DNA from: an uncultured Nitrospinaceae bacterium
GTDB taxonomy: Bacteria > UBA8248
Assembly: GCA_964440505.1 (NCBI GenBank)
Contig: CAYTSP010000139.1
Span: 1 to 56,323, forward strand
Direction of reading: 5' to 3'
Length of the DNA: 56,323 nucleotides
Position 1 is the stretch's first letter, and the number at the start of each line of letters is the position of its first letter. The notes under the pieces are model-generated. The model made no database searches. It saw only the letters and a program-made list of their open reading frames with translations, and was not told the origin of the DNA. Positions 8,501 through 51,745 of the stretch are shown piece after piece. Position numbers and translations under genes: made by a program.

Positions 8501-8878
8501 GCACACCGTCCCCCACCGTCCGTTGTGAAAGACCTCGACCCGCCCTTCGAGATCTGAACTCCCGCCCATCAGGCGCAGGCTTCCCGCCGCCGGTTGTTCC
8601 GCAGCATTCGTCTCGCCGACCGGCGCGGCGGCGAGCAGCAGGGGCGCAACGAACACGACCGCAAGCAGGGATGCCGCCGCGCGGCGGACGCGCGGGAAGC
8701 GAAAAAGACGAGAACGGACGCGGGTATCCCCCTGGTGCTGAGAACCGGAACGCGCGGGCGGCGCCTCTCCGGTCAACGGCGCTTCATCCTCGCGTGCGGT
8801 GAGGGCCGGGGCGCCGGTTGCGGGGAAAGAATGACTGTTCATGACGGAGTCCTCCCTGGCCTTATCGTCGGGAAACAT
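5576..8878 (-). CDS. autotransporter (type Va) with an N-terminal SRCR domain, two copies of a ~100-aa module, an Ig-like segment and a Calx-beta domain
   Basis: The signal-like segment is RRAAASLLAVVFVAPLLLAAAPVGETNA. SRCR spans aa ~100-206 (LRLMGGSSDLEGRVEVFHNGRWGTVCHDLWDDRDAAVACRQLGY...GPIYLDNVECRGNESRLIDCP...HNCIYQEVAGAICS) with 6 Cys. Calx-beta spans aa ~532-637 (VTVDYATADGTAVAGEDYTATSGTLTFAAGEVAKTVSVPVLDDAIDEGRETF). The C-terminal ~300 aa have alternating beta-strand character and end in ...RGARRW, typical of an autotransporter barrel. An alternative start is MNSHSF at 8842. Confidence 0.85.
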   Translation of the reverse strand: MFPDDKAREDSVMNSHSFPATGAPALTAREDEAPLTGEAPPARSGSQHQGDTRVRSRLFRFPRVRRAAASLLAVVFVAPLLLAAAPVGETNAAEQPAAGSLRLMGGSSDLEGRVEVFHNGRWGTVCHDLWDDRDAAVACRQLGYHGGTPIVRSPSRFGEGTGPIYLDNVECRGNESRLIDCPRTGLARTIGNHNCIYQEVAGAICSAPGVTASFVGVPAEHDGSSLFTFELRFSENFPGRLSYKLLRDEALQVKNGRVRRVKRVAPRQNQRWTIMVEPTSSEAVTVTLPAATDCAAPGAVCTEGGRVLSDTVSARVPVVTRFVSATVPADGKRVVLTFSKDLTSGGEHSRYIVEVDGAARVTRSAFREDNKVGVILSKPVRAGQTVSVSYSKPGSGAGGLVDADGLPVASFGPAAVENRATGPGPPAPLTASFIGVPAEHDKRAFSFELRFSENFPGNLRYKMLRDEALEVKNGRVRRVKRVAQGENRRWTIMVKPASFEDVVLMLPAGSVRTEAGRLLSNDVSATVQGPAHLTVADAEVDEGPGAAVAFQVTLSRAASSAVTVDYATADGTAVAGEDYTATSGTLTFAAGEVAKTVSVPVLDDAIDEGRETFRFSLSNAAGARVADGEAVGTIVNTDPMPRAWLARFGRTVADQVLDAVGARLEGGGPTRVTLGGREVLLGGPARAEEALAAFRGEPRPAGWRGSLAGRKGDSLAREVSMSELLLASSFHLASAERTDSDPRWSLWGRGARAGFDGREGAFTLTGDVTTGLVGADYESGRALMGVTLALSSGEGSYEQSGMRGDVETSLAGVYPYLRYAVSERLTVWGAAGFGEGDLTLKPAEAAQVETDLTMSMAAAGARGALRAAGGFRLALRSDLVFVRSESDAVAGLAASEADTSRFRLALEASREVRLTAGLLTPSVEFGLRFDGGDAERGAGLELGGALRYASGGFTVDVQARGLATHEENDYEEWGVSASVRYSPDAAGRGLSLRVGSAWGAAAGGMDRLWSQRAAADLARVGGFEPGSSLEAEAGYGFDLRRGLLTPYTGVALTESGEVWRAGARWKLGPAFDLALEGSLTEPAGGDDTESDLLLRGARRW

Positions 8879-11444: not shown

Positions 11445-14400
11445 CTACACCTGCGATTCCAAAACTGCTTCTCCCACCCCATTTACTCTCGCCTCCTCGC
11501 GATTCAGCTTGACGGAGACAATTTCTGAAACTCCTTTTTCTCTTTGCGTCACGCCGTAGAGTTGATTCGCGTACGACATGGTCTTCTTATTATGAGTGAT
11601 AATGATGAACTGACTCCGGTTCTCAAGTTCGGCAATCACTTCCCGAAAACGTCCGACATTGGCGTCATCGAGAGTGGCGTCCACCTCGTCGAGAATACAA
11701 AACGGACTCGGCCTGACGCTGAAGACTGCGAACAACAAGGAAATAGCGGTAAGCGCCTTCTCCCCTGCGGAGAGGAGCATGATGTTCGAGGGACGCTTGC
11801 CCGGGGGCCTCACTTCTATATCAACCCCCGTCTCCAGGGGGTCATTCGGGTCGAGCAGGTACATGCGCGCCTCACCGCCCTGAAAAAGACGTCCAAAAAT
11901 GTCGGCGAAAGCACTGCCCACCTCCTCGAACGCCGCCAGGAAACGGGATTTCGTTGTCTTGTTCAGTCTCTCGATCGTTGTGTGCAGATCGGCGATGGAA
12001 TTTTCCAAATCCTGCTGTTGTTCTTGTAAAAACACATATTCCTGATTGATTTCATCGTATTCCTGCGCGGCAAGGGGATTTACCTCTCCCATGCGGTCAA
12101 GTCTTTTCTGCAACATCTCCAGACGATTCACAATCTCCTGATACTGGGGAAGTTCTTCCCGCCGACTCTCTGCAGTTGCCTCAAGATTGACTTGACACTC
12201 CACTTTGGCGGATTCAACCATAGATTCCCGTTGTACACGAAGCTTCGTACGCCGCTCCGCCGCCTCATTTACCTCACCGGTCAGGTATGAAGCCTTCTCT
12301 TTTATCTCGCGAATCGAATCACCCAGTTGCTCATCACGTGATTGCACTTCACGCAAAACGCGCTCACGCTCGGTCTGTTCGGCTTCCACCCTGGCTTTCT
12401 CATCCTGAAAAGTGAGGATTTCCTCTCTGCATTGCCCGAGGCTTTCTTGAAAGCGTTTTCTCTTGTCGCTCGACCCGAGCTGATCTTCTTCTCTGCGAAT
12501 TTTGCGGGCTGAATTCTGGGATATCGCATTCTCGAGCCGTTGAATTTCGGCCCGACCAACAGCCACCTGTCCATTTATTTCCGTCAAGGCGATTCTTTTG
12601 TCCGTGACACGCACCTCCATCTCTGAATACCGCTCGCTGGCGTCACTGACCTTTCTTTCGATCTCCTGGACACGCAAGGTGATCTCTATAATCGCCTCTT
12701 CCGAGTGGAGACTTTCATCCCTGGCCACCTGGAGGGTCTCTTCGAGGCGCATCTGCTCCGTGCGCGTCTCCTCTTGCGTGGATTCAAGCGAGACCAACCG
12801 TTTTTTCAATGCCTCGTGTTTATCTTCCGTCGAGCGGAGGATTCCTTCGGCCTCCACGCGCAATACCGCAGCCCGTTGATTCGCCTCAACCGCAAGACGG
12901 TTTCTTTGTTCCGCTTTCATGAGTTCTTCACTCAATCTTTCAGAAATCGGTTCCAATTCATGAACTTGCGCCTCCAGCTGCTCCGCTTTGAGGCGTACCT
13001 CCTCGCATCTTCTCGAACGCTCCAAAAAACCTTCATTTCGACCCAAACCGCCTTCCACCGCACCATTTGCATGAATAATTTCACCCTTCAAAGTCACACA
13101 GACGATGCCTTGGGACCCATTGCACCAGGCCGCCTGCGCGGCATCGATATCCTCAACCACCACAACATTACAGAGCAGCGATTGAATGAGAGGGCGATAA
13201 TCCACTTGGCAGCGAACAAAATCCGCCGCCGCACCGAGAACACCTTCCCCCAGCGGGACGATGGCATCCGGTTGAGCATCCACCTCCTTGGGCAGAGCCA
13301 CACCACGCCCGGTTTCCGAACCCATCAGCGCGCGGAGCGCATTCACCGCATCACCCGGACTCTCCACCACCACGCCCATCAATTGATCGCCAAGGACCGT
13401 TTCAATGGCTTTTTCAAATTTCGGATCGACGCGAATTACATCGGAAAAAGACGCCAGAACTTGAGCACCACAGGACCGGAACGCTTCCATATCCGCTATT
13501 CCACTCTCGTCGGAGCCCAAAACACCTTCTAAGGCCGAGAGAGCGGATTTCGCTTCCATCAAGGACTCTTTCGTCCCAGCCACGGATTCTTCGTGGCGGC
13601 TCAAAGACTCGGACGTTCCCGCGCACTCAGACCTCGCCCGTTCAAGTTCTTGTTTTCCGCGGATTTCAGATGCAATCAGCGATTCCAGCCGGCTTTTCGC
13701 ATCATCGGCGTCGGTTTGTGTCAATTCGATCTGACGCCTGATCTCCTCAAGCTCTTCACCAGTCTTTGCAGTGGACTCGGTCAGTCCCTCACGTCGCGAT
13801 TCGATGGAAGCGATTTGCTGACGAGTCGCGCTCAAACGCTCTTTTTCTTCCTCTTGAGCGCTCCGGGTCTCCTCAAGAATTCGTTCGTGTTCTCTTAAGT
13901 TCTCACGATAAGCGGCTAACTCGGCCACACCGACGTCATATTCCTCGCGCGCAAGACTCGATTGCCCCGTAAGCATCTCAAGTGTTGAAGCAAGCCCGAT
14001 TCTCTCATTCTCCAAGGTCGTGGTTTCAACATCGAGAGCCTGGACTTCCTCCATGCGACGTTCATCTTCCGTATCGAGTTCCTTGAGACGGCTGCCCAGC
14101 ATCTCAACCCGATTCTCCAGCCCCTGCAGGCAACCTTCCACTTCTACTGCTCGGCGGCGGGATTCCGCCAATGCCTCCGAACGCTCGGTGATCAAAATAC
14201 GCCCGTTTTCCCTTTCGGCTTCTAGAGAAGATAATTTCGCGGATACCGCTTGTTCTGCTTGTTTGATGCGGTTATACGCCTTTTCCGCGGGAACAAGTTC
14301 ATCGACAAGTTTGAGGTAATCGAGCACCATGATTCTTTGGGAAAGATCGGCAATTTCAGTTCGGTATTCCTTGTGAAATGTTGCTTTCCTCGCCTGGCGA

Positions 14401-15029
14401 CGCAAAGAGCCCAGGCGGGCTTCTTTCTCACGCATGATGTCAGCCACACGAAGCAGATTCGCCTGCGCCAGCTCCAGCTTTCTCAACGCTTCGTTCCGCC
14501 TGCTCTTGTACTTCATAATACCAGCGGCCTCTTCAATCAGAATCCGCCTGTCCAGTGGCCTCGCGTTCACGAGAGTCTCTATCTTGCCCTGTTCCACGAT
14601 GGAGAAAGTATCGAGGGAAACACCGGTATCCAGAAACAAGTCGACGATGTCTTTGAGGCGGCAAGGATTGCGATTGATGAGATATTCACTCTCCCCGGAG
14701 CGATACAACCGGCGGGTAACCACTACCTCGTCAAAATCCCTGAATGCGGGAGAGGTCACCACGCCTTTGAGATCGGTAATGGTGAGCGAGACCTCGGACA
14801 TCCCGAGTTGCTTGCGCTCGGCGCTACCGTTGAAGATAACATCCTCCATCTTCTTCGAGCGCATATTTTTAGGAGCCTGTTCGCCCAGAACCCACCGAAC
14901 GGCATCGCATACATTGCTCTTGCCGCATCCGTTGGGTCCGACCACAGCCGTGAGACCTTCGCCTATTTCAATCACGGTTTTTTCAACGAAGGACTTGAAC
15001 CCCTGCATCTCCAAGCGTTGGAATCGCAA
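11445..15029 (-). CDS. smc: chromosome segregation protein SMC
   Basis: It is 1194 aa with Walker A GPNGCGKSN, long coiled coils around a hinge, the signature LSAGEKALTA and Walker B FCILDEVDATLD. Confidence 0.95.
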   Translation of the reverse strand: MRFQRLEMQGFKSFVEKTVIEIGEGLTAVVGPNGCGKSNVCDAVRWVLGEQAPKNMRSKKMEDVIFNGSAERKQLGMSEVSLTITDLKGVVTSPAFRDFDEVVVTRRLYRSGESEYLINRNPCRLKDIVDLFLDTGVSLDTFSIVEQGKIETLVNARPLDRRILIEEAAGIMKYKSRRNEALRKLELAQANLLRVADIMREKEARLGSLRRQARKATFHKEYRTEIADLSQRIMVLDYLKLVDELVPAEKAYNRIKQAEQAVSAKLSSLEAERENGRILITERSEALAESRRRAVEVEGCLQGLENRVEMLGSRLKELDTEDERRMEEVQALDVETTTLENERIGLASTLEMLTGQSSLAREEYDVGVAELAAYRENLREHERILEETRSAQEEEKERLSATRQQIASIESRREGLTESTAKTGEELEEIRRQIELTQTDADDAKSRLESLIASEIRGKQELERARSECAGTSESLSRHEESVAGTKESLMEAKSALSALEGVLGSDESGIADMEAFRSCGAQVLASFSDVIRVDPKFEKAIETVLGDQLMGVVVESPGDAVNALRALMGSETGRGVALPKEVDAQPDAIVPLGEGVLGAAADFVRCQVDYRPLIQSLLCNVVVVEDIDAAQAAWCNGSQGIVCVTLKGEIIHANGAVEGGLGRNEGFLERSRRCEEVRLKAEQLEAQVHELEPISERLSEELMKAEQRNRLAVEANQRAAVLRVEAEGILRSTEDKHEALKKRLVSLESTQEETRTEQMRLEETLQVARDESLHSEEAIIEITLRVQEIERKVSDASERYSEMEVRVTDKRIALTEINGQVAVGRAEIQRLENAISQNSARKIRREEDQLGSSDKRKRFQESLGQCREEILTFQDEKARVEAEQTERERVLREVQSRDEQLGDSIREIKEKASYLTGEVNEAAERRTKLRVQRESMVESAKVECQVNLEATAESRREELPQYQEIVNRLEMLQKRLDRMGEVNPLAAQEYDEINQEYVFLQEQQQDLENSIADLHTTIERLNKTTKSRFLAAFEEVGSAFADIFGRLFQGGEARMYLLDPNDPLETGVDIEVRPPGKRPSNIMLLSAGEKALTAISLLFAVFSVRPSPFCILDEVDATLDDANVGRFREVIAELENRSQFIIITHNKKTMSYANQLYGVTQREKGVSEIVSVKLNREEARVNGVGEAVLESQV

Positions 15030-39104: not shown

Positions 39105-40507
39105 TCAGAATCCATCGACCGAAAGCGCGTTCCAGTCTTCGGGCGTCCCTTCACGCAAAAGCTTGAACAACGACCGGCGGGCGATGTCGAAGCCTTTGAC
39201 GAAGGCCGCATCATTTCTCGGCGAGGTTACTTTGTCCGAGCGGCTGTGAACGATCTCCGACCGCGCGTTGTAAAATGCCTTGACGTCTTCCTTGATCCTT
39301 TCCCGGTTTTCCGTATCGGTTCCGAGAAAGCAGGAAACCCTGTCCCGCAATTTGCCCGAGATTCCATTCCGGGGCAGGTCGTACATGCCTTCGAGTGCGA
39401 TGGAGACATCCACGACCCTGCTTTCGTCTGCGAACCGCCCGTTTCGAGCGAGAGCAGCGGCAAGCCGGCCGACGGTCGGTGCCATCCTCCTGTAGCGTTC
39501 ACTCTTTCGGTTTTCGAAGGCTTCCTTCGCTTCGGCAAGAGCATTCGACGCCAACATCGGGCACATTTCGAATCCGTTGAAGCCGTGCGCCGGGCTGCTC
39601 CCATAGCGACTGGGGCTATGGCGTTCCCGACCCAGAAGCCGACCGGCGGAACGGTCGATGCAATTGTACAATTGCGCAAGCGGCACTATCGGCGTCGTGT
39701 GAGCTACGGCCAGCAGATCCAGGAACATTTGCGCCTCCCGGAAAAACGATTCTGGAGACTTCAACGCTAAGTCCATCCAGTGGTCAAGCCGACGGAATAC
39801 AGGCCTCCACCGAAATGGTCTGACCACCGCCCCAATCGACCGCCAGTCGTGGAATCCGGCACCCGGCAGAGCGAGCTCTTCCACCATGTTCTGGTCCACG
39901 AAGCGACTCACTCGCTCGAACGGCAGGATCATCATGTGGCCCGTAACCTCGACTCGTTCCATCACGCTCAGCCCGTAGAACAGCAATGCGTCGTAACCGG
40001 TGTCGAGATCGCCCAGCACATGGGTTGGCCCTTCGTCGCCGGCGGGTTCGAGCAAAGCGTTCAGTTCACCCGCTGCCGTCCGGAAGCGGTCGCCACGCAG
40101 TTCCGCGGCGCGCGCCATCAGTCCGGCAACCAGATCGACTAGGGAGGTAGAGCTGCTGGAGCCGAGGATCTCCATCAGGAACTCGTCTTTGCCGACGATC
40201 CGGCCCACTACCCGTTCAAGCGTGGGATGGGAAACCATGATATACCGCACCGGATCCAACACCGCGAGCAAGGGCGCGTAATGCTTCTCCCTGCCGAAGA
40301 TCTTGCCGTGGTGCGCCATCGCATAGAGAACGCGCAAGTCGTCCAGTGGAAACGGCGGCCGATTTCCGTCCCGACCATCGAACACGACATGCGTGCGGGG
40401 GGTCTGCTCCCGGTATTCGCGCAGGTAAGGTTCTTGTGCTTCCGCCAGCGCGGGAAGAGCTCGCGCTAGGCGGTCGATCCAGTCGGCGTCTGAAAATCCG
40501 TCCGGCA

Positions 40508-40520
<13 letters not shown>
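39105..40520 (-). CDS. 471-aa protein with a C-terminal HEPN-type (Rx4H) domain, coupled to hsdR
   Basis: [12 protein letters not shown] holds R420-x4-H425 (nt 39246-39263, checked on the DNA) within a helical C-terminal ~130 aa. The N-terminal ~330 aa are unassigned. The start is at 40520, or at 40508 where the ATG shares one base with the hsdR TGA. Confidence 0.7.
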
Positions 40521-43636
<3,116 letters not shown>

Positions 43637-43705
43637 CGGGTCCTCTGGGCGGAGAACCGAAGGCGGCGCGCGTATCGGCCCCCTCCGTTCTCTGCACGTT
43701 TCTAC

Positions 43706-43745
43706 CGGCGCCGGGATTCCTCGTGACGTTCATTCCCCGGCGCCG
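43706..43745. promoter_or_regulatory. 10-bp inverted repeat cggcgccggg / cccggcgccg, 20-nt spacer, upstream of hsdR
   Basis: Read directly, 70-110 nt upstream of the hsdR ATG (43636), in the only sizeable gap (327 bp) of the R-M gene array. Confidence 0.3.
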
Positions 43746-43962
43746 AACGTATGACGCAACCGATGATGAAGCATGAAGGGTTCGGGTGATTCTTGCAATC
43801 GGCGGGTGATGTTTGTCCGGTGTTCTTTGAAAGTCTATTTGCCGCTATACGCACGGCGTATTAGGAGGAACCACAAAGCGATTACCTGCAGTTCGACTGA
43901 GGCTAAGTTTATAACAAAGAATTTTATGTTGCGGTTTTTAACCTGTGATTCGTCAAGTTAAT

Positions 43963-45879
43963 TTATTCTTCTTTCTCAAAATCAAGACCCGTCGATACGG
44001 ATTCTCTTTTCAACAACCAGCTAAGAAATCGAGTTTGCACCCAGCGATGTAAAACGATCACGGTTGCCCCAAAAACGAGATTGGCGAGTGTAGCAACAAT
44101 CAGGACAGCAGTGGCAGTGGCAAGAACCCAGCCAAGCACTGGATGCGTTGTAGTCAAACCGCTTCCGGCTATTAACCCTACAACCAGAAGAAGCCCAACG
44201 ACGCTTGAAACTATCCTAGCGAATCCATTTGCTCTACGATGACAACGCCAATAGAGTTGAGATTGAACCGACTGCGTCCTGGCTCGTTCTGACGCTAATT
44301 CCTCCTGTGTCTTGTGATGTGCCGCTTTCTCGGTCTGGTATTTTTCACTTTCTTCTTTTTTGATCTCGCTGACTACGCGGTTAAGTGTTTCGGTGACCGT
44401 TTGCTCAGTCAGAGCACTCTCTTCCCCAAGGGTCAAGTTCATCAATTCCCGTTGAGCCATTTCGCTGCTGCGCAGTAATTGATGATCGCGTTCCGTGATC
44501 TTGCCCTGTTTCTCAAGCCTTTCGATCTCAGTCATGTATTTGTCAAGCAGACCACTTGATGGCTGAAGAGCCGCATACGAGAATGCGATTACCTCGGTCA
44601 TAGGAAGAGTCGGTGCGCCAAGCGGGGCTTTCAGCCAAGCCATGTTCGCCAAACTAAAATCTGTTATGACACTGGAGACCTCGCGGGATGTTTCGTGATC
44701 CTTGCCATATTCGAATGCAGCTTGAGCAAAACCACTATTGCTGGTTACAAGCACCGCCTCGGCGTGCTCAATGTTCCGCGGCGACTTGCCAGAACGCAAG
44801 ACGTAGATACTTCGGACCGAGTTGATGTCATCTTTCTTGGCGCGGGGATTGAGGTATGATATCTCGTCATTCAAAACTTCTTCGAAGGCGCTTTCGTCGA
44901 TTTGGAAATCGGCGTCATATTGAGGCGTGTTTATAACCTCGACCCCAGTGGCTTTGAGTTTCTCATCGATCTGTCCGGCGAGCATGAGCAAGTCGGACTT
45001 GGTGGTTCCAGCACTACGGGCCTCCATCACGATTGCTCCTCTACCATCTGGTGAATCCAAGTAATTCGAGGCCCCGTGAAGCACCCGAGCAAGTTCATCG
45101 CGAGAATGCGAGAAAGTCGCCACCGTGGCTTCAAGGTTTCGCAGCAACTTGATAAGGTTTTCAATCGCCGCCTGCTTGGCACTGCCTTCAAGGCCGAGAC
45201 GTCTGACGAGCAGCGGGGTGTCGAAGTAAAACGTAACACGCTTGTACATCTTCGGAGCTTGTTTGAGATCAGGGCATAACAGTGCATTCGCGAGCATATG
45301 ACCTGTGACTAGAACCATGAAGCTGTCAAACAGTTTCGGGTCAGTTTTCTGAATTGAGAGGACATACTTGCTGACCAGCACGATAAGGGCATTGTCGTGT
45401 TTTTCGACGGTCGGTATTGCGGTACCGCGAAGATATGCACGAAGGCATGGAATGTTGAATTCCGCAAGAAAATCGCAGATAGCCTGCACGGCCTCACCTT
45501 CAAAGATGATCGGTCGTGGTGTATCCTTTGAAAAACTTACCAGATTATCGACTACCGCCCGAATGTGCTTCTCTGCCTCGGCTTTATCTGTGCCGATTTC
45601 TGGATTCGGGAGTTCCCCTGTAATACGATAAACACCATGTTGACGGGTTAGCGGGAGCTTGCGAGCCATTCGTTTGAGGACTATCTGCACTGCCCTCTCT
45701 GGAAGTTCCAATCCAAAATCTGTGCGGATGTGATTGCACACAGCAGAATCTGTCACCGGGTCCGGGTTGTGGTCGCAAAGCACTTGCAGGATAAACGGAC
45801 GCAGATAGTCAAGGTAGTCTAGCCCCTGATCAACATTGACTTTGAGCATCGCCAGACTAGTCAGGGTAGCTGATGACAC
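43963..45879 (-). CDS. 638-aa unknown protein between hsdS and hsdR (wHTH-like N-terminus, central domain, coiled coil, C-terminal TM hairpin)
   Basis: The GTG start shares one base with the hsdS stop (TAGTG); an alternative start is MLKVNV. The N-terminus looks like a winged helix (...VQIVLKRMARKLPLTRQHGVYRITG). The centre has VTFYFDTPLLVRRLGL ... AVLVTSNSGF. A charged coiled coil (EIKKEESEKYQTEKAAHHKTQEELASERAR) follows. The end has 2-3 TM helices (IVSSVVGLLLVVGLIAGSGL, VLGWVLATATAVLIVATLANLVFGATVIVL). There is no Walker A motif. Confidence 0.8.
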   Translation of the reverse strand: MSSATLTSLAMLKVNVDQGLDYLDYLRPFILQVLCDHNPDPVTDSAVCNHIRTDFGLELPERAVQIVLKRMARKLPLTRQHGVYRITGELPNPEIGTDKAEAEKHIRAVVDNLVSFSKDTPRPIIFEGEAVQAICDFLAEFNIPCLRAYLRGTAIPTVEKHDNALIVLVSKYVLSIQKTDPKLFDSFMVLVTGHMLANALLCPDLKQAPKMYKRVTFYFDTPLLVRRLGLEGSAKQAAIENLIKLLRNLEATVATFSHSRDELARVLHGASNYLDSPDGRGAIVMEARSAGTTKSDLLMLAGQIDEKLKATGVEVINTPQYDADFQIDESAFEEVLNDEISYLNPRAKKDDINSVRSIYVLRSGKSPRNIEHAEAVLVTSNSGFAQAAFEYGKDHETSREVSSVITDFSLANMAWLKAPLGAPTLPMTEVIAFSYAALQPSSGLLDKYMTEIERLEKQGKITERDHQLLRSSEMAQRELMNLTLGEESALTEQTVTETLNRVVSEIKKEESEKYQTEKAAHHKTQEELASERARTQSVQSQLYWRCHRRANGFARIVSSVVGLLLVVGLIAGSGLTTTHPVLGWVLATATAVLIVATLANLVFGATVIVLHRWVQTRFLSWLLKRESVSTGLDFEKEE

Positions 45880-47444
45880 TACGAAACCTCTTCCGTTATT
45901 ATTTCCGTGCCATAAAGGCGGACTTTTCCCGACACCAACTCCGGCAGCAGCGCATCGCGCAGAACAGCGAGAGTGCGGGATTCGCGTTGGTTTATTACGA
46001 TCCGTTCGTAGAGCAGTCGGACGCGTTTATCGAACGTCGATAATATCTCGATCTTGGGAATCATAATCTTCAAAGGGCGGAAATTTCGTTTACTGATTTC
46101 TTGGAAGGTCGAACCGTTCGCATTTTGCAGGATCGTATCCATATTCGCCTGCGCCCACAACCAAGCGAACATGTTCGAGAGGCGAGACTCACACTTCATT
46201 GCGATGAATCCTTGGTTCACGGCAACTGGTATTTCCGCAATTGCCAAGTAACCAATGGGCGCGCGCGAAGAGAGTAGAACAACACCTTGGGGTAAAAGGC
46301 CGGAACCAATTTTGCTGAGACCAGCATCCGTGATTTGGCGCGCCGTCTCTAATAGCACGGGTGCGGAAAGTACCGACAGGTCTTTCGGGGTGGCCCAGTT
46401 TATTTTTCCACCCCAGAGACTTCGGTCTTTTGTGCTCGGAGTAGAACCGCCAACAACAGTAACTTCCTCGCCGATTGTGGAGACCTCCCACCCCTCCGGT
46501 ATCTCACCTAATTCCGACCCTACCAGCCGGACGGGGAAGAGGTCGGTGATATACCTGGGCAGGCCGGTGTCGCGGCCTTCCATCTTGGCGCGGACGGGGT
46601 CGAAATCGACGAACCACGACTTGAAAAGCGCGCGGGCCATCGCCTCCAGCGTCTCGTTCATGCGGCGGTTGAGTTTGATCTTGTCATCCAACGTACCGAG
46701 GATATGCGCGATAGCGCGTTGCTCGGTGAGGGGGGGAATGCTGATCTCTAATTTTCGAGCGTCACCTTGGGAAATGAACGGCTGGGCAGAGCCACGCTTA
46801 GGCCAAAGCGATGAATTTCTAGTAACCCAATAAAGGAATTCTGTATTGACTTTGGGATCTGTTGCCCAGAAACGAATAGTGTTCTTGATACATGACCATT
46901 GACCTTTTGCGAGCCATGTCCTTCCGCAGTCAGCACCGATCGCGCTTAACACAACACCCACACGGTTATAGTCTGCATGAGGTAAGAAGCCATCCGGCCC
47001 TTTAGCACTATATGCAGTAAATCCCGATTTGACGTAGGATGCTTTCGTCGTCGAAGTATCTCCCCAACTGACATCAGCAACAGCACCGAGTTTTACTGTC
47101 CGCCATTGAGCCAATTCATGCTGCTCTTCTTTTTCCACCAACACCACAAATTCTTTCTCGATTACGTTGCGAAAGTTCTCAGAAGTTCTTGCCCAGTCCA
47201 CGAAGTCAACCTTGAACGGAAGATCGGACTCTTCAAAGCTTTCCGTTAGGGCTGAAGCCACGTTCAGCGACAAAGGCTCGTCGCCCAAAATAGCGAGATC
47301 TAGATCGGAATAGTCTTTCGCGGTCCAAGTCGCACGCGACCCGAAGGACAACACCTTGCGATCCGGAACGTGCCGATGAAGGATATCGCGCACGATGTCC
47401 AAGTGATCGGGGCGAAGATCAAGGTTCGGGAGCTCCTCGTTCAT
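45879..47444 (-). CDS. hsdS: in-frame fusion of a minimal nucleotidyltransferase (MntA-like) with type I specificity subunit HsdS
   Basis: aa 1-100 are MNT (FGSRATWTAKDYSDLDLAI is the GS-x10-D-x-D motif, then ...LPFKVDFVDW). From ~aa 111 it is a two-TRD HsdS, with the central repeat LTEQRAIAHILGTLDDKIKLNRRMNETLEAMARALFKSWFVDF and the distal RTLAVLRDALLPELVSGKVRL. No stop separates the two parts. The ATG at 47444 overlaps the hepT stop (ATGA); the track ORF starts at 47471. Confidence 0.85.
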   Translation of the reverse strand: MNEELPNLDLRPDHLDIVRDILHRHVPDRKVLSFGSRATWTAKDYSDLDLAILGDEPLSLNVASALTESFEESDLPFKVDFVDWARTSENFRNVIEKEFVVLVEKEEQHELAQWRTVKLGAVADVSWGDTSTTKASYVKSGFTAYSAKGPDGFLPHADYNRVGVVLSAIGADCGRTWLAKGQWSCIKNTIRFWATDPKVNTEFLYWVTRNSSLWPKRGSAQPFISQGDARKLEISIPPLTEQRAIAHILGTLDDKIKLNRRMNETLEAMARALFKSWFVDFDPVRAKMEGRDTGLPRYITDLFPVRLVGSELGEIPEGWEVSTIGEEVTVVGGSTPSTKDRSLWGGKINWATPKDLSVLSAPVLLETARQITDAGLSKIGSGLLPQGVVLLSSRAPIGYLAIAEIPVAVNQGFIAMKCESRLSNMFAWLWAQANMDTILQNANGSTFQEISKRNFRPLKIMIPKIEILSTFDKRVRLLYERIVINQRESRTLAVLRDALLPELVSGKVRLYGTEIITEEVS

Positions 47445-47854
47445 GCCAGACGTTCCCGCAATTTGTCGCAAAGATAGACCGCCTCTTCGAGAAAGCGGGG
47501 GATGCCCGAGACCACTTCGATCGCGGTATTTTCGTTATAGGTGTGACTGGTTTTCGTGCGCATATCGCGGAAGACGCGCCAATTCGGCCAGTCTCCCAGC
47601 AGCAGTCCCTGTTCGTTTCCCGTGCGGATCAGGTTCTGAAACGTCATCTCATCGAATTGCTCCGGGTTCGCCGAAGCATACTCGAGATAGCGTTTGAGAA
47701 CCTTGTGCCCAAGTTCGTAGGTGAATTCAAAACGCTGAATCAGACCGTCGCGAATCTGGGTATCGCTCGTGTCGGCCCGATAACGCGCCAGTCCTTCTTC
47801 GAGGCGCTGGATCGCCCGTTCGAATGGTCCAATCTCGGGCTTATTGTAAGGCAT
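47441..47854 (-). CDS. hepT: HepT-type HEPN toxin (HI0074-family nucleotidyltransferase substrate-binding protein)
   Basis: It is 137 aa. RDGLIQRFEFTYELGHKVLKRYL and RDMRTKTSHTYNE (R-x4-H-x-Y) match the HI0074/HepT family. It sits one base after the hsdM stop. Confidence 0.9.
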   Translation of the reverse strand: MPYNKPEIGPFERAIQRLEEGLARYRADTSDTQIRDGLIQRFEFTYELGHKVLKRYLEYASANPEQFDEMTFQNLIRTGNEQGLLLGDWPNWRVFRDMRTKTSHTYNENTAIEVVSGIPRFLEEAVYLCDKLRERLA

Positions 47855-47855
47855 G

Positions 47856-49460
47856 TCAGTCTCCGTTCCAGAAGCCGAGTTCAGAAAGGTTTCGAGAGAT
47901 CGCCGCGTCCAGCCTCGCGCCTTCCGACTGCTGTTCCCGAAGCTGTGCGACGAGACGCTTCATCTTCTCCTCGAACGGTTCGCCGTCTTCCTCTTGCGCC
48001 TCCGCGCCCACGTAGCGACCGGGCGTAAGTATGTGGCCATGCTTGCGGACTTCCTCTATCGTTGCACTCTTGCAGAAGCCTGGAACGTCGGTGTATTCAT
48101 CAGCGCCTTCACTTCTAAGCCAAGTATGGTAGGTATTGGCGATGCGGGCGATGTCTTCTTCGGTCAACTCACGGTGGGTGCGGTCCACCATGCGGCCTAG
48201 CTTGCGCGCGTCTATGAAGAGAATTTCGCCGCCTCTCTTCCGATCCCGCGCCAGATACCACAGGCAGGCGGGAATCTGTGTCGAGTAGAAGAGCTGCCCT
48301 GGCAGGGCGACCATGCAGTCCACGAGTTCCGCCTCGATCAGGTTCTTGCGAATCTCGCCCTCGCCCGACTGGTTGGAAGACATCGAGCCGTTCGCCAGCA
48401 CGAAACCCGCAGCGCCGCCCGGCGCCAGATGATGAACCATGTGCTGCACCCAGGCGAAGTTGGCGTTGCCCCTGGGCGGGACGCCGTATCGCCAACGCTT
48501 GTCCTCTCTAAGCCGCTCACCGCCCCAGTCGGAGACGTTGAAGGGGGGATTGGCGAGTATGAAATCCGCCTTGAGGTCAGGGTGGCGGTCGTTGTGGAAG
48601 CTGTCCCCATGAGCGATCTGTCCTTCGATGCCGCGAATGGCGAGGTTCATCTTCGCGAGCCGCCACGTCGTGTAGTTCGACTCTTGGCCGTAGATCGAGA
48701 TGTCGCCGCGCGCGTCTCCTCCATTGCCGTTGCCGCTGGTGTGCGCGTCGATGAACTCGACCGATTGCACGAACATGCCCGAGGAGCCGCAGCAAGGGTC
48801 GTAGACGCGGCCCCGGTAGGGCTCCAGCATCTCGACCAAAAGCCTGACGACGCAGCGCGGGGTGTAGAATTCCCCGCCCTTTTTTCCCTCGGCGCTCGCG
48901 AATTCCGACAGGAAATACTCGTAGACGCGGCCGAGAACGTCCTTTGAGCGGGTGTCTGCGTCGCCTATGCGGATATTGCTTATGAGATCGATAAGCTGGC
49001 CGAGACGTTCCTTGTCGAGCGCAGGGCGGGCGTAGTCCTTGGGCAGCACGTCCTTGACGGCGGGGTTCTCGCGCTCAATTGCCGCCATGGCACCATCAAC
49101 TGTCTGACCGATTGAGGGCTGCCGTGCCTGGGCTTTGATATTCGACCAGCGGGCTTCGCGCGGCACCCAGAAGACGTTCTCGGCGCGGTATTCGTCCGGA
49201 TCTTCCGGATCAGCTCCTTCTGCTCGCTCGGATTCCAGCTGGGCATGTCTCTCCTCGAAGGCGTCCGAGATGTATTTCAAAAAGATGAAGCCCAGGACAA
49301 CGTGCTTGTATTCGGCCGCATCCATCGAGCCGCGCAGGGTGTCGGCCATCTGCCAAAGCTCTCGCTCGTAGCCCGTTACGGCACCACTGCCAAGTTCCTG
49401 AGTTTTTTTCGATGTTTGTCGCGCCATGGTTTCCTTATCTCGGGTGGCGGGGATCATCAT
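47856..49460 (-). CDS. hsdM: type I R-M N6-adenine DNA methyltransferase subunit
   Basis: The HsdM N-terminal domain is [32 protein letters not shown]. The AdoMet motif is [11 protein letters not shown]-like ([12 protein letters not shown]). The catalytic motif is LANPPFN. The start may be MARQTS at 49427. Confidence 0.95.
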
Positions 49461-50017: not shown

Positions 50018-51745
50018 TCATTGCGACAAATGTTCGCCATCTCGGCGTGCAAGTAGCTGCCTATCTAGATTCTCGGTCGTCACCGGAAGATCATATCGCC
50101 ACTCGAGCAATTTTATACCATTCGCTTTAAGGATAGCCTTTTTCCGAGCGTCACGCGCCTGGGTGGCCAACAAGCCGTCTTGTCCGCCAAAGAGTTCCAC
50201 GGCTTGAAAATGCTGCTGACCTTGGTATTCGATGGCGATTTTCTCGGATGGCAGGTAAATATCGACAGATTGCAAACCTAAAAAGCTTGGCCGCCACTGA
50301 TGGATTGCGTCCGGGTAGCGGCTTCTCACCAGATCGTAAAGCACCAATTCTGAGACCCACCCCCTGCCTACTTCCGGTATACCTCTCACGCGACGGAAGG
50401 CGTTTTCCGCCGCGACCATCTGTGGAGCGAATGCGTTTTGCAATGTTGACAGAGAAAAACTGCCCAAGTCTGGATGCCAAACAAAAATACGGCCGCGTGG
50501 AGCAACCGGATGTCCATATAGATCAAGTGCCTTATAGTAATGTCGACGGGTGGCTGGCCAGTCAGAACTATGTGGAGTATTCCGAACAAACATGTTTGGA
50601 TCGCTTTCGTAGATCCAATTACGGTCCTCGAACCCAGGAAACCTACTCGTCAAGGGACCTGCTTCCGCCAGTTCACGATCAAGTTCCGAGATAAAGTCAT
50701 CGAATTCCTCCTCCAAGCGAGACTGGATCGGTGATCTCACTACATGCCGACGTGCCAAGTAGCGGACATCTTCTCCGCGCAGTATTGTGCCGGTCAGAAA
50801 GCGTAGATATATCACCTCATCAAAAAGAGCCTCGCGCTCGGTTCCAGGGATCGTTTCGAGCAATTCGACAGCATCGAGAAGACGATCTTCTTGGGTTCTT
50901 TGCAGAATCGCCTGAAAGCGGGGGTCCGGATCCCAAGGCAGGCTTTCGGGAATAGGAGGTCCATCTTGCGGCAATTTGATCGATGACGAAAGCTGCCCAC
51001 GCCGTAAAGGCCAATGGTAGAGGCGTGCGCGAAAATTATCATCTGCGATGCGCCGCCATGGTGATGCGACATTATCGAATTCACGGTCTTTCATGAAACT
51101 TCCGTCCTGCTTAATCCAACCTGTGAAGCTTCCCGATTTCAGGGGAACGCCTAATCCCTCTGAGCCGGTGGACTCAACCAAACGCTCGAAAAACTGCACT
51201 CGGGCAGACGAAACACCTACTGATAAAAGAACATCGCCATTCGGTGCGGTTTGGCGATGGACAGCATCTGCATACTTGGCTAGCGCGGCGGAACGTTCTC
51301 GTTTCAAAGATCCGCAGGCGAGGAAATGAATTCGATTCGCGAGGACGGCGGAGAAATCTGGATAAGCGAGGGGGGTAGTCGGAGCATTAGGTTTTTTTCG
51401 GCTTTTTGGAGGTGCCTCAGGACCATAAGCATCGAGCTGATGTGCTAAGAGAGCCGAAAGCGCTTCGTAAAACGCGCGCGACTTGCCAGCTTCTGGGCGC
51501 TTATTAGCCAATGTGGCGTAGAACTTCGCCTTTGACCGAAGCTCCTTGCGGTAGAATTCTCGAGCATATCGGTTTCTTAGGCTGTACTCAAAAAAATCAA
51601 GCTGCTCTTTGAAACCATCAAGTGCCATTAAACCGGCTTTGACCTTAGGTGGTTTAGGAAATATTTGGAACCTCATGTTGACATTTAGCGCAATAAAGAT
51701 GTCCTTCTCGCCAGCTACCAAGCGCGTCTTCGAGTACCGGCGCAT
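50018..51745 (-). CDS. 575-aa protein, unknown N-terminal ~440 aa plus a C-terminal Vsr-like PD-(D/E)xK nuclease domain
   Basis: The C-terminus is WVSELVLYDLVRSRYPDAIHQWRPSFLGLQSVDIYLPSEKIAIEYQGQQHFQAVELFGGQDGLLATQARDARKKAILKANGIKLLEWRY. It fits the E...D-(hh)-LP...IEY-G-QH...FGG...RD..K...(LIRI)-Y pattern of small Vsr/homing-type endonucleases. The start is ambiguous (51745, or internal MRFQIF / MALDGF). Confidence 0.7.
   Translation of the reverse strand: MRRYSKTRLVAGEKDIFIALNVNMRFQIFPKPPKVKAGLMALDGFKEQLDFFEYSLRNRYAREFYRKELRSKAKFYATLANKRPEAGKSRAFYEALSALLAHQLDAYGPEAPPKSRKKPNAPTTPLAYPDFSAVLANRIHFLACGSLKRERSAALAKYADAVHRQTAPNGDVLLSVGVSSARVQFFERLVESTGSEGLGVPLKSGSFTGWIKQDGSFMKDREFDNVASPWRRIADDNFRARLYHWPLRRGQLSSSIKLPQDGPPIPESLPWDPDPRFQAILQRTQEDRLLDAVELLETIPGTEREALFDEVIYLRFLTGTILRGEDVRYLARRHVVRSPIQSRLEEEFDDFISELDRELAEAGPLTSRFPGFEDRNWIYESDPNMFVRNTPHSSDWPATRRHYYKALDLYGHPVAPRGRIFVWHPDLGSFSLSTLQNAFAPQMVAAENAFRRVRGIPEVGRGWVSELVLYDLVRSRYPDAIHQWRPSFLGLQSVDIYLPSEKIAIEYQGQQHFQAVELFGGQDGLLATQARDARKKAILKANGIKLLEWRYDLPVTTENLDRQLLARRDGEHLSQ

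Follow-up and report, generated by a model that had tools for sequence, protein, structure and literature searches.

In type I restriction-modification (R-M) operons, PrrC obligatorily occupies the slot between hsdS and hsdR, and both PrrC and RloC are built from an N-terminal ABC-type ATPase with a Walker A motif and a C-terminal ACNase domain. Genes nested within such operons often turn out to be defence systems, and those found through 'guilt by embedding' occur both inside operons and non-embedded elsewhere (10.1101/2024.01.29.577857; PMC11411939). The coupling of PIN nucleases to type I R-M has precedents, and in the PIN.COG4956 proteins a PIN domain is combined with a TRAM domain and four N-terminal transmembrane (TM) helices (PMC5499597). 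The membrane-bound nuclease SNIPE cuts phage DNA as it is being injected (10.1101/2025.11.03.685801). Here we analyse a gene, termed gene X, from a 56,323-nt stretch of DNA of an uncultured Nitrospinaceae bacterium (the window), which belongs to an uncharacterised and unnamed family that is missed by present annotation and defence-finding resources.

Gene X in a type I restriction-modification operon

The original prediction placed gene X in a prrC-like slot, and annotation of the surrounding operon indeed sets it between hsdS and hsdR, with the following order of features:

47856..49460, minus strand: hsdM (Pfam N6_Mtase and HsdM_N; PADLOC MTase_I)
47441..47854, minus strand: HEPN (NTase_sub_bind) gene (Pfam E = 1e-34)
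45879..47471, minus strand: hsdS fused to an N-terminal MNT nucleotidyltransferase domain (Pfam Methylase_S, Polbeta and NTP_transf_2; PADLOC Specificity_I; NCBIfam MntA)
43963..45879, minus strand: gene X, with wHTH, PIN-like domain, charged helix and two-TM hairpin (ORF, homologs)
43637..43962, no strand: 326-nt spacer between gene X and hsdR (sequence)
40508..43636, minus strand: hsdR, with HSDR_N, SWI2_SNF2 and T1RH-like_C domains (Pfam; PADLOC REase_I)

The hsdR product is distant from EcoR124I HsdR, and in the 326-nt spacer promoter and terminator matches are at consensus level only and as many occur in shuffled sequence. The open reading frame of gene X (43963..45879, minus strand) translates into 638 aa from a GTG start that overlaps the hsdS stop, as had been claimed: at the TAGTG junction the G at 45879 is at once the first base of X and the final G of the TAG that ends 45879..47471, an overlap of 1 nt. 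A Shine-Dalgarno-like GGAAGAGG lies 7 nt 5′ of the GTG, and we consider the start call right because the N-terminus is conserved from residue 1 in homologs that begin with M. The gene is also, as the original prediction stated, more AT-rich than hsdR and hsdM, both in GC (0.50 versus 0.65 and 0.60, respectively) and in GC3 (0.52 versus 0.84 and 0.74), and at 78 of 81 loci X has a higher AT content than the flanking DNA. Such composition is typical of mobile cargo.

The family comprises 3,288 clusters at 50% identity from many phyla, mostly from uncultured lineages, and ranges from Planctomycetota to plasmids of Enterococcus and Klebsiella. A single homolog search returned more than 1,200 homologs, which are about 638 aa long and highly conserved, and none of which is named. 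Searches of Pfam, NCBIfam, PADLOC 2.0 (5,027 models, including 145 embedded candidates, PDC) and PHROGs gave no significant match to the family, a PADLOC scan of six diverse members gave zero matches, and 50,697 phage records held no X homolog. Literature searches with the plasmid homolog accessions and with the combination of PIN, TM and type I R-M found the family nowhere described, in line with the view that X fits no described system. Three sets of matches were rejected: LeoBC, the only PADLOC match of the window protein, is sub-threshold (E = 2.8e-4) and falls on the charged helix and TM segments (residues 488–602); CorA and DUF5457 are sub-threshold Pfam matches on the same kind of segment; and a sequence-profile search of the PDB returned only noise, from anoctamins and GPCRs aligned to the TM tail. 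PrrC and RloC were likewise not detected in X by PADLOC, Pfam or NCBIfam, and a Walker A motif is absent, so the statement that X is unlike these proteins holds.

Protein architecture and the predicted PIN-like domain

To describe the protein we relied on two AlphaFold2 (AF2) models, conservation and composition. Model 1, which covers the full length and is based on 30 close homologs, had low confidence (pLDDT 61, pTM 0.36) and gave nothing usable in Foldseek; it was replaced by model 2, covering residues 1–490 and built from 74 diverse sequences, which reached a pLDDT of 82.5 and a pTM of 0.79. The predicted parts of the protein are as follows:

45622..45816, minus strand: wHTH, residues 22–86 (AF2 model 2; weak Pfam wHTH matches)
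45265..45594, minus strand: helical linker or bundle, residues 96–205 (AF2 model 2; conservation)
44620..45252, minus strand: PIN-like (VapC-type) domain, residues 210–420, with an insert of about 60 residues at ∼303–372 (AF2, Foldseek, hhalign, conservation)
44425..44607, minus strand: conserved helical region, residues 425–485 (AF2 model 2; mean column identity 0.65)
44230..44412, minus strand: long charged helix (stalk), residues 490–550 (AF2 model 1; composition)
44047..44226, minus strand: two-helix TM hairpin, TM1 ∼552–575 and TM2 ∼581–611 (Kyte-Doolittle; predicted N-in/C-in)

The winged-helix N-terminus that had been proposed is seen in model 2 as helices 22–37, 44–55 and 61–74 followed by strands 77–80 and 83–86, with block-mean pLDDT values of 76–87, and it is matched weakly across members by the Pfam families Penicillinase_R, SelB-wing_2 and TrmB. 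The helical linker that follows ends in a conserved MLANALLCPDL motif.

The PIN superfamily is marked by an alpha/beta/alpha fold, its parallel sheet following the order b1-a1-a2-b2-a3-a4-b3-a5-b4-a6-b5, and by three to five conserved acidic residues of a metal site at the C-terminal ends of the strands. In model 2, residues 210–420 follow the order b1-a-a-b2-a-...-b3-...-b4-a-b5, with strands at 216–219, 252–256, 314–316, 375–379 and 404–406 and helices between them. The high-probability Foldseek matches are PIN-like proteins only: M. tuberculosis VapC 7vwo_A (probability 0.99, TMt 0.61), HARP 7og5_J (0.97, TMt 0.54) and a 'PIN like domain' protein from BFVD (0.99). Their E-values lie between 0.02 and 0.3, none at or below 1e-3, and with a single domain aligned the TM scores normalised to the query are low. 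The best Foldseek E-values belong to small-molecule O-methyltransferases (4qvg and others), which we rejected as a generic match of a wHTH plus a Rossmann-like sandwich, with TM scores of 0.13–0.18 and an rmsd above 15 Å.

At the sequence level, a Pfam scan of the window protein gave no PIN match, PIN_3 was matched sub-threshold by 4 of 74 members and by the E. faecium homolog on the expected segment (E = 5.9e-4), and no PIN model of Pfam reached its gathering score, the family-best PIN_3 match scoring 21.1 bits against a cut-off of 27. In local mode, hhalign against a VapC profile gave P = 0.004 and a probability of 8%, and paired D220 with D7, E262 with E42 and VTSN with VTNN. The motif alignments come from local mode only, as global mode with a 6-sequence PIN profile returned nothing and comparing a single VapC sequence with the profile of the family gave nothing relevant; the VapC-based profile is shallow because the VapC homologs found were all at least 73% identical. 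The two strings quoted in the original prediction as faint PIN-like patterns turned out to be the two best-aligned PIN motifs.

Conservation was scored across 286 sequences. D220, E262, D351 and N381 are invariant, H258, R362 and S354 are near-invariant, and Asp and Glu occupy positions 296 and 371 in 276 and 283 sequences, respectively. The X motifs hhDT (D220), SxxxEL (E262) and hhVT-x-N (T379 and N381) are collinear with D7, E42 and T114–N116 of VapC, and the position after b4 is N381, which is Asn throughout, with T/S379 ahead of it as in the VTNN of VapC, so that the fourth catalytic position of X is Asn instead of Asp. The equivalent of the third VapC aspartate is ambiguous from the sequences, D296 being indicated by alignment and D351 by invariance. 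With its predicted alpha/beta/alpha fold and invariant acidic residues, the domain resembles VapC toxins such as Shigella VapC (PDB 3TND) and M. tuberculosis VapC (7vwo), and we assign it to the PIN fold as a prediction from the model, with sub-threshold sequence support. Unlike VapC, which has about 130 aa, the 638-aa X falls below the Pfam PIN thresholds, carries the fused wHTH and helical bundle at its N-terminus and the membrane hairpin at its C-terminus, and has an insertion of about 60 residues containing D351, S354, R362 and E371. X shares with PIN.COG4956 proteins the presence of a PIN domain and TM helices in one polypeptide, but has neither their four N-terminal TM helices nor their TRAM domain, PF01850 match or lack of a wHTH.

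The C-terminal part bore out the original prediction in part. A long charged helix is predicted, unbroken over residues 492–572 in the full-length model (pLDDT 61), with E, K, R, D and Q making up 42% of the charged segment, but it shows no clear heptad pattern, and the weak heptad signal lends no support to a canonical coiled coil, which leaves the proposed coiled coil putative. The proposed hairpin of two to three helices is a hairpin of two hydrophobic segments, not three. These segments score 2.2–2.5 on the Kyte-Doolittle scale in the window protein, and almost every one of the 70 members that were scored keeps both; K and R flank the hairpin on both cytoplasmic sides, and are absent from its predicted periplasmic loop of ∼6–8 residues. 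The TM helices contain conserved glycines (G568, G574 and G604), and the hairpin is the least conserved part of the protein (mean column identity 0.39 versus 0.63).

We considered whether the charged helix and hairpin assemble into an oligomeric pore that depolarises the cell, with the wHTH–PIN part as its sensor. The conserved glycines and a layout like that of CorA and MCU, or of the 2TM/4TM effectors of CBASS and Pycsar, point in this direction, as do weak matches to CorA (E = 0.0014), MCU (8/74), DUF2207_C (23/74) and S_4TM (2/74). These matches are sub-threshold and lie on low-complexity helix or TM sequence, the CorA score is 18.4 bits against a cut-off of 27, the GMN motif is absent from X, and the periplasmic loop has just ∼6–8 residues; the TM region is the least conserved, whereas the catalytic-type residues of the PIN-like domain are invariant. 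We regard a pore as quite unlikely. Since the PIN positions are invariant and the hairpin is not, the membrane part looks like an anchor and the nuclease like the effector, which makes the 'membrane effector' of the original prediction doubtful.

Genomic contexts of the family

We compared 85 related loci, of which 52 had full flanks. In 20 of the 52, hsdS and hsdR of one and the same type I family flank X, which usually abuts hsdS, and across all 85 loci hsdS is upstream on the same strand in 37. X overlaps the hsdS stop or starts within 35 nt of it in about 24 loci, and its own stop overlaps the hsdR start in 6. The linkage to type I R-M anticipated for the homologs is thus strong, with frequent start and stop overlaps; more generally, the points on which the original prediction staked itself came out in agreement with it, as homologs are R-M-linked, no described family was matched and TM segments were found. 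Apart from hsdS, hsdM and hsdR, no neighbour is conserved across the 85 loci. No type I gene was found within 10 kb in 29 of the fully flanked loci, and just one in 3 more; overall, about 60% of loci are free of type I genes. When R-M state was placed on the family tree, nearest neighbours agreed in 31 of 52 cases, versus 27 ± 4.3 expected, showing that the trait is unclustered.

The tight junctions raise the question of a guard of the PrrC type, in which X would be kept silent by binding physically to HsdM2S or HsdR of the type I enzyme, and a phage anti-restriction protein that disables this enzyme would free a suicidal nuclease. X sits in the exact prrC slot, and its start overlaps the hsdS stop not only here but also in the two nearest relatives, L085 and L086, in which X, HsdM and HsdR identities track one another (89, 90 and 89% for L085; about 85, 84–93 and 82–92% for L086). 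The same slot and a predicted RNA-directed suicide nuclease are what X has in common with PrrC. However, an HsdMS-silenced toxin would be unable to persist alone, and the loci without type I genes, the phylogenetic scatter of the linkage and the complete architecture of distant, solitary homologs on Enterococcus and Klebsiella plasmids all speak against a guard. X also differs from PrrC and RloC in lacking sequence similarity to them and an ABC ATPase domain, in its other nuclease fold and in its predicted membrane anchor. We consider such a guard unlikely, and the 'R-M-guarded' part of the original prediction is not borne out as worded: X often lodges in the PrrC slot but is probably not an obligate restriction-silenced guard. 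Its context pattern is RloC-like rather than PrrC-like, linkage to R-M being confined to part of its occurrences, as is reported for RloC (PMC3458546). Nested and free occurrence is also what X shares with the 'guilt by embedding' set (type I R-M, BREX, DISARM and Hma as hosts; TgvAB, RloF/GmrSD, HEC and PDC), though it matches none of the 145 PDC candidates in PADLOC 2.0.

Outside R-M operons, the 43 non-R-M loci have no conserved neighbour of at least 90 aa and no conserved small ORF within 700 nt, and with the 85-locus comparison this sets X apart from VapBC, as no separate VapB gene lies nearby. Neighbours at these loci include Avs2, Menshen, PD-Lambda-2 and type II, IIG and III methylases. 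Several other loci sit amid housekeeping genes (e.g. nrdAB, recA and polA), and for that reason defence-island enrichment outside R-M operons is modest. The plasmid copies adjoin IS elements, resolvases and resistance genes.

The plasmid surroundings, together with the AT-rich composition and a wHTH plus PIN layout resembling a single-chain VapB–VapC, are what would be expected if X, as a fused toxin–antitoxin (TA) or addiction module or as a regulator, served to stabilise mobile DNA such as plasmids and R-M cassettes and had no anti-phage role. Addiction modules do not feature a membrane anchor, and the repeated, strong embedding in type I R-M operons and the defence genes in several other neighbourhoods argue against this reading, which we judge improbable. 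Since many TA systems are themselves defence systems, the addiction and defence readings overlap.

A candidate role for gene X

Because of the partnerless loci, the solitary plasmid copies and the scatter of R-M linkage on the tree, we read X as autonomous, and with moderate confidence we propose that it is a self-contained, horizontally mobile, membrane-tethered PIN nuclease and a candidate single-gene anti-phage or abortive-infection effector. The C-terminal hairpin would fix X in the inner membrane, leaving its N- and C-termini cytoplasmic, and the long charged helix would keep the cytoplasmic module near the membrane. There, the wHTH and helical bundle, joined to a PIN nuclease of the VapC type whose acidic active site is intact, may serve nucleic-acid binding, sensing or auto-inhibition and thereby stand in for a separate VapB, so that X would need no dedicated partner. 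A phage-derived cue would trigger nucleic-acid cleavage and so halt phage production; the likelier substrate would be RNA (tRNA, rRNA or mRNA), as for VapC, with incoming nucleic acid at the membrane as the alternative. Where X is lodged directly 3′ of hsdS, as it is here and at roughly 40% of related loci, co-translation with hsdMS is probable, and X would add a second layer behind type I restriction.

A membrane anchor and a nuclease in a single protein recall SNIPE, which provides a precedent for telling self from non-self by location. The likeness is one of functional analogy only: in X the nuclease is PIN-like and the hairpin C-terminal, a DNA substrate is not indicated, and Pfam and PADLOC scans of the window protein found no SNIPE-related family. 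A related reading, which we hold to be doubtful, makes X an inner-membrane sentinel, a VapC-fold RNase or nuclease that would use its location, and when embedded its contact with type I R-M, to sense infection, and would fire on incoming nucleic acid or on blocked restriction. If true, thousands of proteins would follow the logic of PrrC or SNIPE, arrived at anew on an unrelated fold.

If the preferred reading of X as an autonomous, membrane-tethered nuclease is confirmed, the ∼3,300 clusters at 50% identity would represent a widespread single-gene defence or toxin family wholly missed by current resources, and a membrane-anchored PIN nuclease with a fused DNA-binding head. Type I operons would then have two occupants of the PrrC slot, X being unrelated in structure to PrrC. 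Such a family would allow a tractable test of whether genes that follow hsdS are independent of the restriction enzyme or act with it, and of whether membrane location serves to restrain or to direct a toxic nuclease.

The type I operon and its embedded gene

The minus strand of the window holds a type I restriction-modification operon, in which the gene for a 638-aa protein occupies the slot between hsdS and hsdR.

Type I operon in the window
47856-49460 (-): hsdM
47441-47854 (-): HEPN (NTase_sub_bind) gene, upstream overlap with the MNT-HsdS ORF
45879-47471 (-): MNT nucleotidyltransferase-HsdS fusion, one ORF, MNT domain N-terminal (residues about 25-116)
43963-45879 (-): 638-aa gene, GTG start
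326 nt: spacer between the 638-aa gene and hsdR
40508-43636 (-): hsdR

The original prediction had described this slot, a GTG overlapping the hsdS stop, an AT-rich gene and a product lacking Walker A, and all four hold: the last base of the hsdS TAG stop is the first G of the start codon (TAGTG, one shared base), GC (GC3) is 0.50 (0.52) vs 0.65 (0.84) for hsdR and 0.60 (0.74) for hsdM, and no Walker A motif was found in the protein. A GGAAGAGG motif lies 7 nt upstream of the start.

Several neighbouring features are recorded here in their own right. Two independent contigs repeat the HEPN plus MNT-HsdS layout, those of a close relative (L086:1304-3264) and of a further homolog-carrying locus (L004:6561-8658), and a single PADLOC Specificity_I model covers the fused ORF; an antitoxin domain on the specificity subunit could make a HEPN RNase toxin depend on whether the restriction-modification complex is intact. 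A 471-aa ORF at 39105-40520 (-), whose start, as called, shares 13 nt with the 3' end of hsdR, drew no match from Pfam, NCBIfam, PADLOC or PHROGs. Other loci do not keep it beside hsdR, and the operon may carry it as additional cargo. Just upstream of hsdM, a 575-aa ORF at 50018-51745 (-), with a GC (0.51) that is low, as in the 638-aa gene, matches HNH/homing-endonuclease PHROG families over its C-terminal ~100 residues (E down to 1e-24). Composition across the window is mosaic (GC 0.50-0.72 in 2-kb bins); an SMC gene is present, as is a 1,100-aa SRCR/Calx-beta protein in the 72% GC patch (ORFs e.g. 5576-8878 (-) and 11445-15029 (-)). No tRNA genes were found in the 56,323 nt, and most other window ORFs tested had no Pfam match.

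Predicted architecture and PIN assignment

A first, full-length AlphaFold model built from 30 close homologs was poor. Modeling residues 1-490 from 74 sequences of 27-89% identity gave a pLDDT of 82.5 and a pTM of 0.79.

Predicted architecture of the 638-aa protein (AlphaFold model, residues 1-490)
22-86: winged helix
96-205: helical bundle
~210-420: alpha/beta/alpha domain, strand and helix order of a PIN domain
425-483: further helices

The central domain had originally been described as faintly PIN-like, and structure searches agree with this, whereas sequence profiles stay sub-threshold. Foldseek returned nothing at E <= 1e-3, and its high-probability matches were PIN-like proteins only: M. 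tuberculosis VapC (7vwo_A, prob 0.99, target TM 0.61) and HARP RNase P (7og5_J, prob 0.97, TM 0.54), with Exo1 at prob 0.54; in the viral library the top match was a phage 'PIN like domain' protein (prob 0.99). The PIN_3 profile matched 4 of the 74 family members below threshold, and the Enterococcus homolog matched it on the expected segment at E = 5.9e-4. In a pre-specified hhalign comparison of the family with a VapC profile (P = 0.004; the Shigella VapC sequence used is identical to PDB 3TND), VTFYFDTPLL...FSHSRDEL was paired with KFMLDTNIC...SSVTLMEL (D220-D7, E262-E42), and a second, collinear match paired AVLVTSN with LIIVTNN. The PIN fold is assigned from a predicted structure, with sequence-profile support below conventional thresholds.

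Across a 286-sequence alignment of the family, D220, E262, D351 and N381 are strictly invariant and H258, R362, E371, S354 and D296 nearly so. By the extended alignment, D296 would correspond to VapC D98, an uncertain assignment since D351 and E371 sit in a family-specific insertion. The invariance of the acidic residues speaks for an active nuclease.

The remaining predicted features were all present, two of them in altered form. The 'long charged coiled coil' is indeed a long charged helix, unbroken over 492-572 in the full-length model and highly charged over 490-550, but with no clear heptad pattern, and the '2-3 helix membrane hairpin' consists of two hydrophobic segments (about 552-575 and 581-611), not three. 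Lysines and arginines lie on both cytoplasmic sides of the hairpin and none in its short loop, which predicts an N-in/C-in topology. If the protein were a pore-forming effector, as sub-threshold CorA, MCU and DUF2207_C matches on the helix and membrane sequence might suggest, its conservation pattern should not point the opposite way: the hairpin, kept in almost every family member, is the least conserved region (0.39 vs 0.63 for the PIN domain). We consider a pore very unlikely, as a hairpin so persistent yet so poorly conserved argues for a membrane anchor, not a specific channel.

Distribution and linkage to restriction genes

One search returned >1,200 homologs, the best 120 being ~638 aa long, 63-89% identical, spread over many phyla and every one labelled hypothetical. 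Scanned exhaustively with HMMER, 1.84 billion cluster representatives gave 3,288 clusters at E <= 1e-3; of these, 1,221 reached E <= 1e-30. Scanning one genome per GTDB species yielded 80 loci, picked via two conserved peptide patterns so that divergent branches are perhaps under-represented, in Planctomycetota, Acidobacteriota, Chloroflexota, Nitrospirota, Gemmatimonadota, Pseudomonadota and others, with Pseudomonas, Methylovulum and Microbulbifer among the cultured hosts. A search of 50,697 phage records turned up no homolog.

When all ORFs of at least 90 aa from 85 loci were clustered, the only neighbours common to more than a few loci were the three type I subunits: HsdS in 37 loci, in every case upstream and on the gene's own strand; HsdM in 33; and HsdR in 31, where it usually follows the gene on that strand. 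Gene calls in these related loci are crude longest-ORF calls. The start overlaps the hsdS stop or lies <=35 nt from it in ~24 loci, and in six loci X (the 638-aa homolog) and hsdR overlap as well, stop on start, so that hsdM-hsdS-X-hsdR forms a compact operon. Extra cargo, where present (AAA_21/DUF4276, M78 peptidase, RhuM, transposases), sits between X and hsdR. The originally proposed tie to restriction-modification loci is borne out where full-length X has >= 5 kb on each side: of 52 such loci, 20 place it inside a type I operon and another 3 carry a single type I gene. Since type I loci generally make up very little of a genome, this association should be a very strong one. Linkage shows no clustering on the family tree: a locus and its nearest relative agree in restriction-modification state in 31 of 52 cases, vs 27 +/- 4.3 expected by permutation.

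A PrrC-type guard, silenced by the restriction-modification complex, would fit the slot, the overlapping codons and the closest relatives, in which X diverges in step with HsdM and HsdR (89/90/89% in L085, the closest). We nevertheless regard it as unlikely, since X stands alone in the majority of loci and on plasmids. Locus L085 (1-19861) has hsdM-hsdS-X-hsdR with the same 1-nt overlap; its phage- or MGE-like surroundings (SSB, DUF4326, YAcAr, a portal fragment) suggest that the whole four-gene unit travels on mobile elements.

Outside type I operons there is no conserved partner gene, nor any conserved small ORF within 700 nt, which argues for a self-contained protein. Neighbours there include other methylases and restriction-like genes (MmeI-like, DUF1156, type III methylases, a large N6_N4 methylase accompanied by a UvrD helicase), defence genes already known (Avs2, Menshen NsnB/C, PD-Lambda-2, CapP) and housekeeping genes. 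In three gammaproteobacteria, Methylovulum (L061), Porticoccaceae (L068) and Microbulbifer (L070), nrdAB lies immediately upstream of the homolog on the same strand, and the site downstream of these ribonucleotide reductase genes may be an insertion hotspot. AT-richness is a family-wide mobile-cargo signature: X has a lower GC than the DNA flanking it in 78 of 81 loci (mean difference -9.8 points), its GC3 is below that of the adjacent hsdR in 29/30 and hsdM in 28/29, and this remains so where X and these two genes diverge in step.

Distant homologs (21-29% identity over residues 3-502) are plasmid-borne in Enterococcus faecium, Klebsiella quasipneumoniae, Pantoea, Arthrobacter, Hymenobacter and Sporosarcina. 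The Enterococcus and Klebsiella copies, read whole, keep the architecture unchanged, C-terminal hairpin included, with IS elements, resolvases and resistance genes on their flanks. Both come from clinical resistance plasmids (pNY2032-2, WP_010706231.1, L087; pKA1-2, WP_258336611.1, L088), where they are solitary between IS elements, near resolvase genes and cat or aac(3)-IV/aph(4). A pure addiction or regulatory element on mobile DNA, a reading that overlaps with that of a toxin, seems to us very unlikely.

Proposed activity and known parallels

The protein is most likely a membrane-tethered VapC-type PIN nuclease with a fused winged helix and helical head; we infer its nuclease activity, substrate, trigger and defence phenotype. 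The head could bind nucleic acid, restrain the nuclease, or both, and would thereby substitute for a separate VapB antitoxin. RNA is the favoured substrate because the structural neighbours are VapC and HARP. Alternatively, the protein might cut incoming nucleic acid at the membrane, as does SNIPE, an unrelated protein (10.1101/2025.11.03.685801).

PIN nucleases transcriptionally coupled to type I subunits were noted in a classification of the superfamily (PMC5499597, section 17). Type I operons are known to harbour accessory defence genes, among them PrrC, TgvAB, the Rlo genes and the 145 PDC candidates that PADLOC now includes. The 638-aa protein had no significant match in Pfam, NCBIfam release 20, PADLOC 2.0 or PHROGs, Pfam and NCBIfam hold no family for it, PADLOC models also failed to match six diverse family members, and a literature search did not find the combination of winged helix, PIN domain, charged helix and C-terminal hairpin described. 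We rate the family as an undescribed, widespread candidate defence or toxin family, not a new principle. Lying right behind hsdS, the gene would be expressed together with the methyltransferase genes and would add a second layer of defence, an idea already put forward for further genes nested in type I operons (PMC11411939; 10.1101/2024.01.29.577857).
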